This document shows positions 949 through 56,317 of a DNA stretch of 64,000 nucleotides, piece by piece (within the stretch, counting starts at the first letter, position 1; each line of letters opens with the position of its first letter). The notes below the pieces were generated by a model. It ran no database searches. It was not told the DNA's origin and saw only the letters and a program-made list of their open reading frames with translations. The position numbers and the translations under genes are program-made. This DNA comes from Thermoprotei archaeon (GTDB lineage: Archaea; Thermoproteota; Thermoprotei; QMSL01; B3-G16): positions 13,397-77,396 of the forward strand of contig JAGGXX010000048.1 of the NCBI GenBank assembly GCA_021162845.1, in the 5' to 3' direction.

Positions 949-1037
949 TGCCGGGGCCGGGATTTGAACCCGGGACCTCCGGATCTCCCAGAGCGCCTTA
1001 TGAGTCCGGCGCCCCAACCAGGCTAGGCGACCCCGGC
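949..1037 (-). tRNA. tRNA-Met or tRNA-Ile2 (anticodon CAT) with 14-nt intron
   Basis: Reverse complement folds as GCCGGGG / D-arm GCCT..GGGC / anticodon stem CCGGA..TCCGG with loop CTCATAA / T-arm CCGGG-TTCAAAT-CCCGG / acceptor CCCCGGC + A. G1:C72 indicates an elongator-type tRNA. No CCA is encoded. Confidence 0.75.
985..998 (-). other. tRNA-Met(CAT) intron, canonical 37/38, about 14 nt
   Basis: AGGCGCTCTGGGAG lies between the anticodon loop and the 3' strand of the anticodon stem. H helix CTCA/TGGG with bulges TA|A and AG|A. Position ambiguous by 1 nt. Confidence 0.55.
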
Positions 1038-9720: not shown

Positions 9721-9835
9721 TCATTATGATCGCGAGAATTCTCCTCTAGAACTTAGCCTTTAAGGTAATTTTGAGAAAAACTTTCGAGGACGATTCTTTA
9801 TCGATAAAGAATGATAATCAATAGCGAATTCGTGG

Positions 9836-9927
9836 TGGGGCCGCCCGGATTTGAACCGGGGTCACGGGGACCCAAACCCCGCAGTCCTCTGGGACGGATG
9901 CGCCCTTCCAGGCTAGCCTACGGCCCC
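9836..9927 (-). tRNA. tRNA-Pro(TGG) with non-canonical intron of about 19 nt near the D-arm/position 26
   Basis: Reverse complement: acceptor GGGGCCG/CGGCCCC + A, T-arm CCCGG-TTCAAAT-CCGGG, anticodon arm CGGGG-TTTGGGT-CCCCG (TGG). An extra 19 nt (hairpin GTCC-CAGA-GGAC flanked by CGCA/TGCG) lies between the D-loop and the anticodon stem. Confidence 0.65.
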
Positions 9928-12195: not shown

Positions 12196-12294
12196 TGGAG
12201 CCCCGGCCGGGATTCGAACCCGGGACCACGGGCTTTTACGCCCTTCATCAAAGGCTTTACAAGGCCCGCGCTCTGCCTACTGAGCTACCGGGGC
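12196..12294 (-). tRNA. tRNA-Thr(TGT) with 23-nt intron, CCA encoded
   Basis: Reverse complement: GCCCCGG-TA-GCTC AGTAGGCA GAGC-G-CGGGC CTTGTAA [AAGCCTTTGATGAAGGGCGTAAA] GCCCG-TGGTC-CCGGG TTCGAAT CCCGG-CCGGGGC-T-CCA. Confidence 0.8.
12235..12257 (-). other. tRNA-Thr intron (23 nt, canonical 37/38, flanking A-run gives a few nt ambiguity)
   Basis: Sits between the anticodon loop and the 3' strand of the anticodon stem. Internal helix GCCTT(T)/AAGGGC. The H helix is not canonical. Confidence 0.5.
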
Positions 12295-24389: not shown

Positions 24390-24399
24390 TTTATATATA
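24390..24399 (+). promoter_or_regulatory. TATA-like box tttatatata upstream of psmA
   Basis: AT-rich archaeal TATA-like element about 95 nt upstream of the psmA ATG. Implies a leadered transcript. Confidence 0.35.
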
Positions 24400-24493
24400 G
24401 ATTCCTTGGTTAGAAGAGTGAACTAAGAGAGGTGAGTAAGCCAGGAGTTCAGCTCATGTACGATGAGAGGTGTCATGTATGTTTACGCCTAGT

Positions 24494-25227
24494 ATGGGCT
24501 ACGATAGTCATCCCTAAGGGGTGACCGTAAGAGGGCTATAACGATATTCTCCCCTGATGGTAGGCTATTTCAAGTTGAATACGCCTCAGAAGCCGTAAGA
24601 AAGGGACTAACGGCATTGGGTATTAGATGCAAGGAGGGCGTCATTCTCGCAGCTGAGCGAAGGGAGTTCACGCCTTTAATGGAACCCGTGGATAAAATCT
24701 ACTCGATAGATGAGCACATAGGCCTCGTATTCTCAGGGCTTCCTTCTGACGCCAGGGTCCTTATAGATAGAGCACGCATTGAAGCACAGATAAACAGGCT
24801 CGTTTATGATGAGCCTATCAGCGTGGAGTCCTTAACTAAGACCATATGCGATATGAAGCAGGTCTACACACAACACGCGGGTGTAAGGCCCTTCGGCGTA
24901 GCCTTTATAATAGCTGGAATTGACTATAACGGCCCTCTTCTCTTTGGCACGGATCCCTCCGGGGCATATAGGAAATATTATGCACATGCAATAGGTGCAG
25001 GGGAGCAGACCGCTAGGGAGATACTCGAAAAGGAATATAGGCGCGATATGGCTCTCTCGGACATCATCGTGCTTTCATTGAAGATCCTCGATAAAGTGAT
25101 TGAAGGGGGAGTTGAGAGCTTTAAGGTGGAGATGGGCGTCGCTGATGTAAAGAGCCGCAGATTTAAGAAATTATCACAGGAGGAAATAGAGAGATATATC
25201 AGGACTTACCGAGGCCTTAAATCCTAA
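24494..25227 (+). CDS. psmA: proteasome alpha subunit, two exons (join 24494..24505, 24532..25227) after removal of a 26-nt BHB intron
   Basis: Exon 1 ATG GGC TAC GAT (MGYD) in frame 2, exon 2 AGG GCT ATA ACG ATA TTC TCC CCT GAT GGT.. ([22 protein letters not shown]..) in frame 1. Together they give the universally conserved proteasome-alpha N-terminus [22 protein letters not shown]. Unspliced, the first in-frame Met is 40 aa downstream at 24616 and an in-frame TAA lies in the 26-nt insert. Confidence 0.75.
24506..24531 (+). other. predicted BHB-type (HBh') mRNA intron in psmA, 26 nt
   Basis: Helix TACG(24500-03)/CGTA(24526-29); 5' bulge AT|A; helix GTCATCCC/GGGGTGAC (8 bp, one U-G) with loop TAA; 3' bulge AG|A. 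Cleavage after the 2nd bulge nucleotide, as in the tRNA-Trp intron 1 here, joins GAT|AGG in frame. Length is 26 nt (not a multiple of 3) and the insert contains a stop. Confidence 0.7.
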
Positions 25228-25242
25228 AGGAGGTAGATCCCT

Positions 25243-25947
25243 TTGGTCGAGAGCGGAAAATACGTCATAGCTCGATACGAGAGCCATGGAGAGCGCTTCG
25301 AGATAGTAGTATATCCCGAGGAGGCATGGCGGTATAGAGAGGGGAAAGAACGCGATTTAAGTAAAGTGTTAGTCTATGACATGGTATATAAAGACGCTAA
25401 AAAGGGGCTTAAGGCCTCAGAGGAATCCTTACTTAAGGCATTCCGAACCACCGACATCAATAAGATCGCTGACATAATATTGAGGCGCGGAGAACTCCAG
25501 GTGACGGCGGAACAGAGAAGGCGAATGATAGAGGCTAAGAAGCGCCAGATAATAAACTTCATCGTCCGTAACTGCGTGGATCCTAGAACAGGCGCGCCTC
25601 ATACCCCGACTAGAATAGAGAATGCTATGAATGAAGTAGGCGTCAGGATAGACCCGTTTAGGGATCCTGAGGAACAAGCACAGGAGGTCATAAAGGCCCT
25701 CAGAAGGATCCTTCCGTTGAAGATAGCCCGAGCTCTAATTGCGGTGAAAATATCACCTGAATATGCAGGTAAGGCATACGGAATGCTGTCTAGGATGGGT
25801 GACATAAAGCGCGAAGCTTGGCTACCTGATGGCTCTTGGATAGCGGAGATAGAGATCCCTGCTGGTCTACAGCCAAAGCTGATAGAGAAGGTTAACGAGA
25901 TAACACATGGTTCAGCTCAGGTTAAGATAATCAGTAAGAGCAGGTGA
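25243..25947 (+). CDS. sdo1: ribosome maturation protein SBDS/Sdo1
   Basis: KYVIARYESHGERFEIVVYPEEAWRYREGK N-terminal FYSH domain. Conserved position after psmA in the exosome superoperon. Confidence 0.85.
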   Translation: MVESGKYVIARYESHGERFEIVVYPEEAWRYREGKERDLSKVLVYDMVYKDAKKGLKASEESLLKAFRTTDINKIADIILRRGELQVTAEQRRRMIEAKKRQIINFIVRNCVDPRTGAPHTPTRIENAMNEVGVRIDPFRDPEEQAQEVIKALRRILPLKIARALIAVKISPEYAGKAYGMLSRMGDIKREAWLPDGSWIAEIEIPAGLQPKLIEKVNEITHGSAQVKIISKSR

Positions 25948-26639
25948 GGGAATTGGTCATATATTTTTCTCAGAGAGATGTAGTGATCCCCGGTCAACTC
26001 TTGGCTAAGGGCATGTACCGTCTGGGAGATAATGTCTATAGGATAGGACAGAGCATCTACGCCACAACCATAGGCCTTGCTGAGCTTAGGGATAACACTG
26101 TAAACGTAATCCCCCTTAAGGGGTGCTATGTGCCCCATGTAGGGGACCTAGTAATAGGCCTAGTCGTCGATGTTAGTCTGACTAGCTGGACCGTCGATAT
26201 AGCATCTCCCTATACCGCTTTGCTTCAGGTTAATGATGCGTTCAGTAAGCCTATTGACCCCCTCAAGGAGAATCTCCGAAAATACTTCGATGTGGGTGAC
26301 TACATAGTCGCTAACGTAATAGCATTCGATAAAACGCGTGACCCACTGCTCTCTACAAAGGAGCCACCGTGTGGGAAGATTGAGAAGGGAACAGTGGTCG
26401 AGATATCCCCAACTAAGATTCCCCGCCTAATAGGCAAGCGGGGCTCCATGATTAGCATCATTAGGAAAGAGCTGAGCTGCCAAATCATGGCCGGACGTAA
26501 CGGGAGGATATGGGTTTACTCTAAGAACCCTAGTTATGAAGAAATAGCTGTTAAGGTTATAAAGAAGATTGAACAGGAAGCGCATGTTGCTGGGCTTACG
26601 GATAGAGTTAAGGAGATGATAAGGAGGTTGAGGAGGTGA
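25944..26639 (+). CDS. rrp4: exosome complex RNA-binding subunit Rrp4 (S1 + KH)
   Basis: N-terminal domain [11 protein letters not shown]1 and KH ([13 protein letters not shown]) domains; synteny. Confidence 0.85.
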
Positions 26640-26643
26640 TCCT

Positions 26644-27399
26644 TTGTTAGTGAGAAAGGAGGTTAAGCCTCTGAGGCTTATAGATGAGGACGGGCTAAGA
26701 ACCGATGGAAGGCGTGTTGATGAACTGAGGAACATTAAGATAGACGTAGGAGTCCTTAAGAATGCCGATGGATCATGCTATCTGGAGATAGGGCGAAATA
26801 AGGTAATGGCAGCGGTATATGGGCCCAGAGAGGTCCATCCAAGACATCTCGCATTACCCGATAGAGCGATACTTCGTTGTCGTTATCATATGGTTCCTTT
26901 CTCAGTTCTAGAGAGGAAGTCACCTAATCCCACACGTAGGGAGATAGAGCTATCTAAGGTCATAAGGGAGGCATTAGAACCAGCACTCTTCCTTGAATAC
27001 TTCCCCAGGACGACTATTGATGTGTATATAGAGATCTTACAGGCGGATGGTGGTACCAGGACCGCTGGCATCTCCGCTGCTGCCGTTGCCCTAGCAGATG
27101 CTGGCATACCTATGAGAGATCTTGTCACTGCCATAGCGGTAGGGAAAGCGGATGGCCATATAATATTGGATCTTAATGACCTAGAAGATAAGTATGGCGA
27201 GGCGGACATGCCAGTGGCTATGATGCCCAACTTAGGCTCTATAACCCTATTACAGGCAGACGGCGAATTCACGCCTGAGGAATTTAAGGAGGCCTTGAAT
27301 CTGGCTATGAAAGGCATACGTGAAGTTTATGCCAAGCAAAGAGAGGCCCTCAGGAGGAGATATCTTAAGGTAAGGGAGGAGGTTGAAGGAAGTGTCTAG
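26644..27399 (+). CDS. rrp41: exosome complex exonuclease Rrp41 (RNase PH-like)
   Basis: [37 protein letters not shown] RNase PH fold; synteny. Confidence 0.9.
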
Positions 27400-28231
27400 G
27401 TCTGAAGAAGTAATACCGAAGTTAGAGAAGCATAAGCTCAGTTCGCTGATAAGTAAAGGAGAAAGGATCGACGGACGAGAGCTGAACGAATATAGACCCA
27501 TAACAATAGACGTTAACTGCATAGAGAAGGCGGAGGGCTCGGCCATAGTCAGCTTAGGCAATACCGTTTCCATAGCCGGAGTTAAAGCTGAGATAGGAAC
27601 ACCCTTTGCCGATACACCAAACGAAGGTGTACTAATAGTGAACGCTGAGTTCCTTCCACTAGCATCCCCCTCATTTGAACCCGGGCCGCCAGATGAGAAC
27701 GCGATAGAGATAGCACGAGTAGTTGACAGGGGGATAAGGAGTAGCAGGACTCTAGATCTTGAGCGGTTATGCATAATCCCCGGTAAGCGGGTTTGGGTTA
27801 TTTACGTAGACGTATACGTTCTCAACCATAATGGAAATATGATAGATGCCTCCGGTTTAGCCGTGCTTTCCGCATTGCTGACGGCTAAGATACCTGTAGT
27901 GAAGGTCTCGGAGGATGAGAGGATAGGGATCACAGATGAATGGGTTCCGCTTCCCATTAGGGACCGGCCCGTACCTGTTACTATGGCCAAAATCGGGGAT
28001 AAGCTAGTTGTTGATCCTAATATCAATGAGGAGCTATCGATGGACTGCAGGCTTACGTTAACGGTTAACGAGCGGGGCTCCATATGCGCTGTGCAAAAGG
28101 GTGGAAGAGGTAGTCTATCGATGAACGATATCCTTTACGCCGTCGATTTAGCCCTTAAAGTCAGTAAGGAGATAAGGAGCGCACTACCGCCTTTACCCAA
28201 AATCGAGGATATCACATACGTAGTAAAGTAA
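27383..28231 (+). CDS. rrp42: exosome complex subunit Rrp42
   Basis: [34 protein letters not shown] RNase PH-like inactive subunit; overlaps the rrp41 end. Confidence 0.85.
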
Positions 28232-46592: not shown

Positions 46593-47249
46593 CTAAACAG
46601 GGTAAAAGCTTTCCTTAGCTTCATTCTTCGTAATCACTAATGTGTCAACACCATCCCCGCTTATAGCATCTCGCGAGATAGCGCTCTTTACAGCCCTCAC
46701 TGCTATTTCCTCGGCCTCTTTTACTGAGAGCTCCTCCTTATAGGCGTTTTCAATAATACCTATGGCTATCTGAGCGCCCGAGCCTACCGCGGCGTATTTA
46801 TCCTCTATGAGTGAGCCGAGCGGATCTAAGACGAAGATATGAGGGCCTTCTTCGTCAACTCCACCTAGTACAGTCTCGGCTATGTAAGGGAAGTACCTCT
46901 GATTGAAGAGTATTATCGAGAGGAGCTTAGCTGCCGCCCTTATGGGCATCAGCCTATTATGATCTAGCTCGTAAAGCCTAGCCTCCGCTGCCAGAGTCCT
47001 CGCTATCGCCTGCATATCAGCGATTATCCCCGCACAAGCTATGCCCATCCTATTGTTTATCTTAAAGAGCTTTTTACCAGCCTTACTGATAAGAGCAAAG
47101 CCATAGGATACTCTTTTCTCCGAAGCTAGCACTACGCCTTCCTTCGTCGCTAGCCCGACCACTGTCGCACCTGGCATTGGAATGCCCAGGTACTGCTCCC
47201 TACGTGAATCAGTAGGTAAATTATAATTATATGTCATTATGATAAACAC
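46593..47249 (-). CDS. psmB: proteasome beta subunit, probably non-catalytic (Ala at position 1)
   Basis: ..PGATVVGLATKEGVVLASEKRVS aligns to TTTVGI... with Ala in place of Thr1. Confidence 0.75.
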   Translation of the reverse strand: MFIIMTYNYNLPTDSRREQYLGIPMPGATVVGLATKEGVVLASEKRVSYGFALISKAGKKLFKINNRMGIACAGIIADMQAIARTLAAEARLYELDHNRLMPIRAAAKLLSIILFNQRYFPYIAETVLGGVDEEGPHIFVLDPLGSLIEDKYAAVGSGAQIAIGIIENAYKEELSVKEAEEIAVRAVKSAISRDAISGDGVDTLVITKNEAKESFYPV

Positions 47250-47456: not shown

Positions 47457-48407
47457 TTACGTCCTCCTAAACCACCCCTTTTCCATCCATGTACGCCTCA
47501 TAGCCTCGATGTTTTCCCATGGATATCGTAGCGAATGCCCCGGCGCTAGGATCAGACCCCCGTTTCTGCCGAGCCTAATGCATTCCTCTACTTCACGTGT
47601 CACATCCTCAGGCGTTCCTCTATCAAGCGTCCTGGCACTGACTCCTCCCCATAGGGTTACCCTATCACCATAGAGCCTCTTAATCCAGTGCCAGTCGTTA
47701 CACTCCCTCTGTACATTAAGTATATCGACCCCTATCTCCACAAGATCCGGTATCAGCGCTTCTACCCTTCCATCACTATGTTGAAAGACCAAGACATCGT
47801 TCTTCTTAGCGATTTTATAGAGCTCGGCCTGCCAAGGCTTTATGAAGCGTCTCCACCACTCAGGAGAGAAGAGAAGCCTATCCTCCATCCCCCAGTCATC
47901 CCCATATAGGATTACGTCAACTCCAACTTCCTCTATTAGCCTCTCGCTTAAGCGGATCTTGACTTCAGCAATCCGCTCTATCAACCTCTCCACGACCTCA
48001 GGTTGCGTGAAAGACCATAGGAATAACCTACGCATGCTGACCAGGAGCCACGCTCTCTCAAAGAGCCCCCATCCATTATCTCCTGCTAAGATGACTTTAC
48101 CCCGGTTCACGCGAGATGCTTTTTCCTTAGCCTCCTTTATGACAGTAGATCCCTCAGGGGACGGCATAGGGTAATCGTCCACCTCACTTGGATCCTTAAG
48201 GGGATGAGAGGAGGGAAATGGACCTGACCTGGGATCCCTTAACGTCCACTTAACGCCCCATGCATCTTTGCCCTCCTCGCAATGTTCTATTAGGCCATGC
48301 TTTATGACTACAACAGAGCCATCGAACATAGGGCAGGGTATCCAGAGAGGAGGTTCATGGTTTACGGCCAAAAGAAAGTTCTCCTTGGGAGAGAGTGAGG
48401 TATACAT
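47457..48407 (-). CDS. uroporphyrinogen decarboxylase (URO-D) family protein
   Basis: TIM-barrel URO-D/MtaA-like pattern. Confidence 0.5.
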   Translation of the reverse strand: MYTSLSPKENFLLAVNHEPPLWIPCPMFDGSVVVIKHGLIEHCEEGKDAWGVKWTLRDPRSGPFPSSHPLKDPSEVDDYPMPSPEGSTVIKEAKEKASRVNRGKVILAGDNGWGLFERAWLLVSMRRLFLWSFTQPEVVERLIERIAEVKIRLSERLIEEVGVDVILYGDDWGMEDRLLFSPEWWRRFIKPWQAELYKIAKKNDVLVFQHSDGRVEALIPDLVEIGVDILNVQRECNDWHWIKRLYGDRVTLWGGVSARTLDRGTPEDVTREVEECIRLGRNGGLILAPGHSLRYPWENIEAMRRTWMEKGWFRRT

Positions 48408-48519
48408 GATAAAAGCTAGGAAAGGCTAAGCTCTTAAGCCTTCGATAAAAAGCGGGAGATACACTAATATCCCACGTACGCATAGGAGATATGCTTAGTA
48501 GCGCTGTGAGCTGAGGATC

Positions 48520-55548: not shown

Positions 55549-55926
55549 ATGACGTTAGGGCTGAGTTGTCATGAGATAAGGGTAAAGAGCAATGGCTATG
55601 GTAGCGCAGTGGACGTAACGCCGATGTTGAGGAGATGCGCTGAGGGCATAGAAAGGGGATTAATGAACGCTTATGTCTCAGAGGAAGACGCAGCCTTAGT
55701 GACTATCGAGTACGAGAGGGGGCTTCTCGAGGACTTGAAGAAGTTCGTTGAGGAATACATGAAGGCCTTTAGGGGATTGGCACCGACTATACTTGGGAGG
55801 AGCCTTGACCTGCCTATCGTTAATGGAAACATTAGGCTAGGGACCTGGCAACAGGTAGTGTTCATAGATCTAGGACACAGAGCAAGGGAGGTGAGCATCT
55901 ACGTCACGATTATATATGAGGATTGA
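55549..55926 (+). CDS. YjbQ/UPF0047-family protein (paralog 1)
   Basis: C-terminal LGTWQQVVFIDL hallmark. Confidence 0.7.
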   Translation: MTLGLSCHEIRVKSNGYGSAVDVTPMLRRCAEGIERGLMNAYVSEEDAALVTIEYERGLLEDLKKFVEEYMKAFRGLAPTILGRSLDLPIVNGNIRLGTWQQVVFIDLGHRAREVSIYVTIIYED

Positions 55927-56317
55927 GATCGGAGATTTCATCATTAAGACCTACGGGCCGAATGCGCTTTTCGACATAACAAAAGAAATATTATCCTTCC
56001 TAAATAAGGCTAAAGCGATACGAGGCTTGCTCTTGATAAGCGTCATGGGTAGTACGGGTTCTTTAGTATTAATCCCACCAGAACAAGTTGATCCTATTAA
56101 GAACAATGAACTATGGGCACTCGTGCCAGTTAATGCTGGGTGGAAGCACGAGGGAAACGCCTATGCTCATCTGAGGTCCACAGTGCTCGGTACGAGTATC
56201 ACAGTACCCATAAGGGATGGAAAGCCCGTGTTAGGCAGGCACAGAATCTACTTCATCGAGAATCAATGTTATATGGCTAGAGAACGTCACTTTTACTTAG
56301 TTTACATAGGTGAGTAG
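55916..56317 (+). CDS. YjbQ/UPF0047-family protein (paralog 2, divergent)
   Basis: DITKEI...GSTGSLVL...HEGNAYAHLRSTVLGTSITVPI..GKPVLG pattern, but GRHRI replaces GTWQ. Confidence 0.6.
   Translation: MRIEIGDFIIKTYGPNALFDITKEILSFLNKAKAIRGLLLISVMGSTGSLVLIPPEQVDPIKNNELWALVPVNAGWKHEGNAYAHLRSTVLGTSITVPIRDGKPVLGRHRIYFIENQCYMARERHFYLVYIGE

Follow-up and report, generated by a model that had tools for sequence, protein, structure and literature searches.

How does an archaeon make the alpha subunit of its proteasome from a gene whose first codons stand in one reading frame and the remainder in another? The question is raised by psmA in a 64,000-nucleotide (nt) stretch of contig JAGGXX010000048.1 (assembly GCA_021162845.1, positions 13,397 to 77,396 of the forward strand), which we call the window. 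An earlier interpretation of the letters by themselves, the sequence-only reading, had seen here a predicted pre-mRNA intron of the bulge-helix-bulge (BHB) type. We come to the same answer with a probability of roughly 85%: the window psmA is split by an intron of the splicing-endonuclease type, and PsmA can be made only once it has been spliced. The answer starts from what can be seen directly at the locus, namely its sequence and fold, the restoration of the frame by excision, conservation of the insert among orthologues and covariation within it, and is further supported by a geometry shared with the tRNA introns of the window. In one matter of context we depart from the sequence-only reading, which had spoken of Thermoproteales: the lineage is that of an uncultured 'Thermoprotei archaeon' known as a metagenome-assembled genome, and its membership of the Thermoproteales is not demonstrated.

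Exon 1 (24479..24505, forward strand like all parts of the gene) reads ATG TTT ACG CCT AGT ATG GGC TAC GAT and encodes MFTPSMGYD, the last four residues (MGYD) coming from ATGGGCTACGAT (24494-24505). Exon 2 (24532..25227) begins with AGGGCT, ends with GLKS and a stop codon (25225-25227), and lies in a different frame, which is shut upstream by a TAG at 24505-24507 and has its first canonical start at the TTG 24616. The 26 nt between the exons (24506..24531, AGTCATCCCTAAGGGGTGACCGTAAG) contain a TAA at 24515-24517 in the frame of exon 1. Translation of the unspliced RNA would stop after 12 codons; the peptide MFTPSMGYDSHP is all that this RNA yields, and the production of the alpha subunit therefore depends on splicing. 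Removal of the intron (AGUCAUCCCUAAGGGGUGACCGUAAG) joins GAT|AGG, which restores both the frame and the Tyr-Asp-Arg (YDR) motif; the unspliced sequence GGCTACGATAGTCATCCC is replaced by the predicted junction GGCTACGAT|AGGGCTATAACG, and the two exons together encode an alpha subunit of 240 amino acids (aa). Much of this had been described beforehand (an N-terminus divided over two frames, a TAA inside the 26 nt, an excision that joins GAT|AGG in frame, and no start upstream in the frame of exon 2 unless splicing takes place), and these statements about the sequence all hold.

By its protein signatures the spliced product is an archaeal 20S alpha subunit (PsmA). Starting at the ATG 24494, the product has 235 aa and fits TIGR03633, the NCBIfam equivalog of archaeal alpha subunits, along positions 1-229 of the 230 of the profile (320 bits against a cutoff of 287.35); it also matches PF00227. 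The complete alpha N-terminal signature, PF10584 (Proteasome_A_N), is matched from position 1 to 23 of 23 across the junction, with 51.3 bits against a cutoff of 27.7, and it is found in the spliced form only: the unspliced open reading frame (ORF) of 203 aa gives no match to PF10584, in agreement with the earlier claim that the unspliced gene lacks its gating N-terminus. The 240-aa product aligns to archaeal alpha subunits of solved structure, for example with its residues 3-233 to chain A of PDB 6HE5 (the alpha subunit of A. fulgidus), free of gaps across the junction, which falls between the Asp and the Arg of the YDR motif. In the 20S particle this motif gives the gate its shape.

The RNA around the insert folds into a hairpin in which both exons and the intron take part. 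A central helix of four base pairs (H) is formed by UACG in exon 1 (24500..24503) and CGUA in the intron (24526..24529). On its 5' side follows an unpaired bulge, AU|A (24504..24506), then a hairpin, h' (24507..24525), with an 8-bp stem (24507-24514/24518-24525, strands GUCAUCCC/GGGGUGAC) that includes one G.U pair and is closed by the loop UAA (24515-24517). The 3' strand of H stacks directly on the stem of h' and is followed by the 3' splice-site triplet AG|A (24530..24532). With its 4-bp H, a 3-nt bulge 3' of the 5' strand of H and h' stacked on the 3' strand, this is a BHB motif of the relaxed HBh' class. The UACG/CGUA helix, the AUA bulge and the 8-bp h' are all part of the minimum-free-energy structure of a 121-nt context, so that the fold drawn in the sequence-only reading (TACG/CGTA, bulge AT|A, an 8-bp helix and loop TAA) was recovered there. 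According to PMC2738675, such motifs are cut after the second bulge nucleotide and before the third. Applied here, this rule predicts one cut at 24505/24506, in AU|A, and one at 24531/24532, in AG|A, which together give GAU|AGG and a functional in-frame product, ...GYD|RAITIF.... A shift of both cuts by one nucleotide would produce an identical mRNA, because the intron and exon 2 both begin with A. Excision at the canonical positions is the sole operation that joins the two frames, and this register is beyond what chance would give.

Orthologous loci were gathered by a genome scan, three contig look-ups and a search of a metagenome collection with a DNA pattern that was agnostic of structure. 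Ten distinct sequences were obtained from about seven uncultured Thermoprotei lineages, with 73-91% amino-acid identity between lineages. Every one of them (10/10) carries an insert at the identical D|R codon boundary, and its length is free to vary (26, 26, 31, 25, 25, 25, 25, 26, 24 and 25 nt), while relatives such as P0130 and P0010 are intronless; the comparison of orthologues that had been proposed earlier thus favors the intron. Exon 1 evolves like coding sequence, with changes mostly in third positions and an invariant MGYD, and in one sequence (L004) it has gained one codon by an in-frame insertion of 3 nt. In another (L081) the 24-nt insert leaves the exons in one frame but holds a TAA, and therefore simple read-through is ruled out. 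The suspicion of an assembly error, raised together with the original proposal, is also disfavored, as the same insert is present in independent assemblies: it is identical in two independent ENA assemblies, and a 98.8%-identical JGI contig has two intron differences only, a G.U to G-C change in the stem and one loop base. The strain L084 has G-C in place of G.U, and a UUA loop.

Structure is conserved over sequence among these inserts. In the proposed register 97.5% of the base-pair cells of the alignment are standard-paired, versus 33-51% when the partners are slid by 1-3 columns. Compensatory double changes were found in 6 of the 12 pairs (five of the eight in h' and one in H), and the covariation score of the alignment was not attained in any of 500 shuffles. 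The compensated pair of H (columns 24-54) changes from C-G to U-A in L001, L081 and L082 and ties the third base of the Tyr codon to a base of the intron; a second pair of H, at columns 22-56, is U-A or U-G. When the changes in h' were mapped on the protein tree, several independent events were required. RNAalifold offered a different, outer pairing (columns 20-22/61-63 and 26-27/54-55) that leaves the C-to-U change of column 24 unexplained. We have rejected it because this change co-occurs with the G-to-A change of column 54 in the same three sequences, as helix H predicts.

The splice-site triplets themselves are ATA on the 5' side and ARA on the 3' side in 10/10 sequences (the columns 25-28 and 57-60 of alignment A1 correspond to 24503-24506 and 24530-24533 of the window). 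The final Asp of exon 1 is always encoded by GAT, never GAC, and the first Arg of exon 2 always by AGR, never CGN (10/10). This invariance suggests constraints on the sequence of the bulges beyond that of staying unpaired.

Exon 1 most likely starts at the ATG 24479, that is, 15 nt 5' of the ATG 24494 from which the sequence-only reading had begun the protein. The upstream codon has a Shine-Dalgarno-like GAGGTG (24467..24472) 6 nt before it and a TATA box (TTTATATA, 24390..24397) 89 nt before it, and the N-terminus that it gives, MFTPSMGYD, matches those of the intronless homologues P0130 and P0010. A Shine-Dalgarno-like match lies 4-8 nt 5' of the equivalent ATG in 10/10 orthologous sequences and a TATA-like motif 85-89 nt 5' of it in 9/10, the distance being 61 nt in L004. 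No Shine-Dalgarno match was found at the ATG 24494 or the TTG 24616, and the ATA 24538, where GenBank begins the protein, has just a 5-nt match (GGTGA), 13 nt upstream.

All three tRNA genes of the window contain introns, whose H(4)-bulge(3)-h' geometry is that of the psmA intron and whose bulges are similar to its own. The tRNA-Met/Ile2(CAU) gene (949-1037, reverse strand, as are the other two) has a 14-nt intron (985-998) adjoining the anticodon, with a strict motif in which H is CUCA/UGGG and the bulges are UA|A and AG|A. Also adjoining the anticodon is the 23-nt intron (~12235-12257) of tRNA-Thr(UGU) (12199-12294). The third gene, tRNA-Pro(UGG) (9833-9927), has a single 19-nt intron in the D-arm (~9887-9905, tRNA nt 23-41), bounded by a BHB in which CUGG/CCAG forms H, the bulges read AA|G and AG|G, and h' has 4 bp. 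ARAGORN gives this last tRNA an anticodon of four bases, and at the gathering threshold the gene escapes Rfam; our interpretation comes from deletion scans and BHB enumeration, and the tRNA is canonical after removal of the 19 nt. Its exact junction is tentative, as the spliced D-stem would hold a C.A mismatch; a junction at tRNA nt 25-43 was discarded, there being no canonical BHB there. The psmA fold had been likened to that of intron 1 of a tRNA-Trp in the window: the shared geometry stands, but the tRNA in question is best taken as tRNA-Pro(UGG) with one intron. The non-canonical position of this intron, in the D-arm, is indirect evidence of an endonuclease of broad specificity in the host (PMC5829648; PMC6379350).

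Several observations weigh against the splicing of psmA or lessen the force of what has been said for it. Its excision is deduced from DNA, the public collections having yielded no spliced RNA. An exact look-up of the ten predicted spliced proteins in a collection of 15 billion proteins found none of them, and a spliced N-terminal query of 104 residues found no match from the clade that spans the junction, its hits being intronless relatives only, with 72% identity at best; protein collections derive mostly from DNA assemblies, and the absence of spliced products from them says little. A Pfam scan of 40 ORFs of the window turned up no EndA, RtcB or Cbf5. The orthologous sequences are related, so that some of the covariation counts are inherited and not independent. 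The motif also falls short of the strict hBHBh' form: beyond the ARA triplet there are at most 1-2 invariant exon-exon pairs, with zero covariation, and since no convincing outer helix h closes the 3' triplet, the motif is the relaxed HBh' and not the strict one. Finally, motifs of this kind are not rare. In a scan of the whole window for H(4 bp)-bulge(3)-hairpin-H, compared with composition-matched random sequences, those with a stem of at least 6 bp numbered 20 on both strands versus 17.4 expected, and those with an 8-bp stem numbered 1 (the one in psmA) versus 1.5 expected. We have accordingly dropped the motif as stand-alone evidence, its frequency being within chance expectation; its significance in psmA comes from register and conservation and not from the motif itself.

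The data agree poorly with another start codon, with a pseudogene or an error of assembly, and with frameshifting or bypassing by the ribosome. The absence of the spliced product from the record would be natural if nothing were spliced and translation of the alpha subunit began further downstream or at a non-canonical codon (ATA 24538 or TTG 24616), MFTPSMGYD being a relic or an unrelated short upstream ORF. Gene callers and the annotation pipeline PGAP have indeed made such models (P0001, 229 aa, and P0002, 203 aa). We consider this very improbable, given that exon 1 is conserved codon by codon in about seven lineages with Shine-Dalgarno and TATA signals of its own, and that compensatory changes, which a relic would not retain, are seen in the hairpin as well as in the exon-intron helix. 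ATA is besides a non-standard start codon, the signals in front of both downstream candidates are the poor or missing ones described above, and the truncated proteins would be devoid of the Tyr-Asp of YDR or of the whole N-terminal signature. Worse placed still is a pseudogene, an assembly or sequencing artefact, or a small palindromic element recently inserted. A disrupted frame, in sequences taken from metagenome-assembled genomes, would suit such an origin, but the same insert recurs in independent assemblies from different samples and centers and in about seven diverged lineages with both exons intact (no stops or indels), the gene heads a conserved psmA-SBDS-Rrp4-Rrp41-Rrp42 cluster, and the Pfam scan of 40 window ORFs shows no second alpha-type gene. 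Its probability is close to negligible.

Translational recoding would leave the RNA intact and have the ribosome shift frame within the 26 nt, or bypass them as in gene 60 of phage T4, with the hairpin as stimulator. A stable hairpin with a stop codon right after the take-off region is indeed what known bypass and frameshift sites look like, and the introns of cbf5 were formerly mistaken for frameshift sites (PMC2738675). Here, inserts of 24, 25, 26 and 31 nt would each demand a different shift, the in-frame 24-nt insert has its TAA, and a frameshift would add 8-10 residues inside the invariant signature YDRAITIF. We found neither a constant offset with a slippery site nor matched take-off and landing codons: GAU precedes the insert and AAG or AAA, never GAY, precedes the AGR of exon 2. 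A 4-bp helix between exon and intron that covaries and has 3-nt bulges fits instead the substrate of an endonuclease, and recoding is in our view highly improbable. Equally slim is the chance that the insert is excised by some nuclease other than EndA, one that recognizes the hairpin and leaves the ends to RtcB for repair. The missing strict hBHBh' form and an enzyme not identified in the window would leave room for it; against it, geometry and bulge sequences match those of the window tRNA introns, EndA is in the literature searched the sole described remover of archaeal introns (from tRNA, rRNA and mRNA), and 24-31 nt are too few for a self-splicing intron; no observation requires such a nuclease.

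For the spliced psmA intron we can then outline a course of events. The precursor mRNA would be transcribed from the promoter with the TATA box at 24390 and, nine codons past the ATG 24479, would fold into the relaxed bulge-helix-bulge. EndA, the archaeal splicing endonuclease, would cleave AU|A and AG|A behind their second nucleotides, as for the tRNA introns of the window, and a ligase of the RtcB type would join the exons, leaving the 26-nt intron out. GAU|AGG would then be read as Asp-Arg, completing the Tyr-Asp-Arg gate motif and the alpha N-terminus. That EndA cleaves the RNA, that the exons are ligated and where exactly the cuts fall is what we infer; excision by EndA followed by RtcB ligation, as for tRNA and cbf5 introns, is the most likely route. 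In cbf5, pre-mRNA introns often have relaxed motifs, and the heterotetrameric crenarchaeal endonuclease cleaves them outside a tRNA context (PMC2738675). Indirect indications, namely the D-arm intron of tRNA-Pro and the affiliation to Thermoprotei, point to a host enzyme of broad specificity, either an (alpha-beta)2 endonuclease with the Crenarchaea-specific loop or an epsilon2 one.

Could the intron also serve as a control point that ties the assembly of the proteasome to EndA and RtcB, the rate of splicing setting the output of alpha subunits? We regard this as unlikely, together with its corollary of a subunit with an altered gate made from unspliced RNA in L001. Were it true, the rate of splicing might vary with temperature or through competition with translation. 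In L001 (2958-3023, identical in L087; proteins P0008 and P0126) the 31-nt intron is open in the frame of exon 2 and is preceded by the ATG within TATGAT. The unspliced RNA could there encode a predicted alpha subunit that starts with MIATSTNGGGHKRAITIF and is devoid of Tyr-Asp, in this one lineage only.

The nearest known relative of the psmA intron is that of cbf5 in Desulfurococcales and Sulfolobales (Watanabe 2002; Yoshinari 2006; Yokobori 2009; PMC2738675). Both are short, lie inside a coding sequence, have a BHB-like motif (often relaxed in cbf5) with the cut predicted between the second and third bulge nucleotides, are limited to one crenarchaeal clade, and belong to a type that genome annotation routinely misses or calls a frameshift. 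They differ in the host gene, an RNA pseudouridine synthase in one case and the proteasome alpha subunit in the other, and in the lineage, here an uncultured Thermoprotei clade from hydrothermal sediments. The psmA intron is moreover nine codons from the start, where it splits the YDR gate motif, and is known from DNA alone, whereas splicing of cbf5 is backed by cDNA and in vitro work. With the non-canonical crenarchaeal tRNA introns, which have relaxed hBH or HBh' motifs (Marck & Grosjean 2003; PMC6379350), it shares the H(4 bp)-bulge(3 nt)-h' and the purine-rich bulges, found also in the tRNA-Met, tRNA-Thr and tRNA-Pro introns of the window, and a length (24-31 nt) within their range of 11-175 nt. 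Unlike them it sits in an mRNA, with a coding exon side of H (the Tyr codon) and no tRNA body, and recognition must therefore rest on the motif alone. Another mRNA substrate near the 5' end of its message is the BHB intron in the 5' untranslated region of Haloferax volcanii HVO_1309 (Schwarz et al. 2020; PMC7714728). That intron has 46 nt, was verified by circRNA-seq and in vitro cleavage, and lies in an untranslated leader where no reading frame is interrupted, in contrast to psmA, whose intron interrupts the coding sequence.

A more distant parallel is the splicing of XBP1 (26 nt) and HAC1 by IRE1. There too a small structured mRNA intron is removed without a spliceosome by a protein endonuclease, the exons are sealed by an RNA ligase, which for XBP1 is RtcB, and the shift in reading frame decides which protein is made. 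The endonuclease and the motif (IRE1 and twin stem-loops) are unrelated to those proposed for psmA, and we know of no IRE1 in archaea. Of regulated splicing we see no evidence in psmA.

As to novelty, coding-sequence introns of this type were first reported in cbf5 in 2002; a 2019 review and a 2025 review cite the cbf5 papers alone, and a systematic study of 2020 (PMC7714728) names cbf5 as the sole other example on record while adding the 5' untranslated intron of HVO_1309. Our search of the literature found no report of an intron in psmA, in line with the sequence-only reading (coding BHB introns mainly in cbf5 and none known to it in psmA), although most papers in subscription journals lay outside the search and an earlier report is possible. 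The gene would then be the second archaeal protein gene family that needs such splicing. The mechanism is the one proposed for cbf5; the novelty lies in where the intron occurs, in another host gene, in another lineage and within the gate motif. A second case in an unrelated housekeeping gene, spread over a clade and with covariation, would mean that endonuclease-type splicing of mRNA is not a one-off. It would also provide a second natural substrate with which to understand how EndA recognizes relaxed motifs outside a tRNA body, and would make an essential protease dependent on the machinery of tRNA splicing. This suggests that frame-aware BHB scans of uncultured TACK genomes would reveal more such introns.

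The locus further exposes a systematic error of annotation, GenBank either using an ATA as start or translating the intron. The public psmA models of the clade (MCD6510075.1, RLF20895.1, RLF16800.1 and RLF23300.1) are wrong, and all are deprived of the correct gate-forming N-terminus. MCD6510075.1 (229 aa) starts at the ATA 24538, just past the intron; RLF20895.1 (238 aa, MATHKGGRERAITIF) starts at an ATA as well and reads through a 25-nt intron. Other models of the clade use downstream starts and have 195-218 aa, for example the 203-aa model from the TTG 24616. A look-up of the 229-aa GenBank model returned no contig on record.

In the window, psmA is the first gene of a conserved proteasome/exosome cluster on the forward strand (24479-28231), where it is followed by SBDS (25243-25947), Rrp4 (25944-26639), Rrp41 (26644-27399) and Rrp42 (27383-28231). 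A beta-type proteasome subunit is encoded on the opposite strand, 21 kb from psmA (46593-47249). Two short ENA contigs, L090 (3305-4698) and L091 (1651-3004), are 99.9-100% identical to the window across psmA; their gene calls for Rrp4 and Rrp41 are fragmented or have no Pfam matches, unlike those of the window, and these downstream differences may be strain variation or assembly errors.

Another HBh'-like site of the window, with a 7-bp stem and a 12-nt loop (48460-48499, reverse strand), coincides with two overlapping ORFs and was considered as a second split gene. We have discarded it: the motif is just 5' of a URO-D-like gene (47457-48407, reverse strand) whose N-terminus is its own, the other ORF is antisense noise, and the match is probably due to chance. 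At 55549-56317 (forward strand) two adjoining genes overlap, each with a complete UPF0047 domain, and represent tandem paralogues rather than a split gene.

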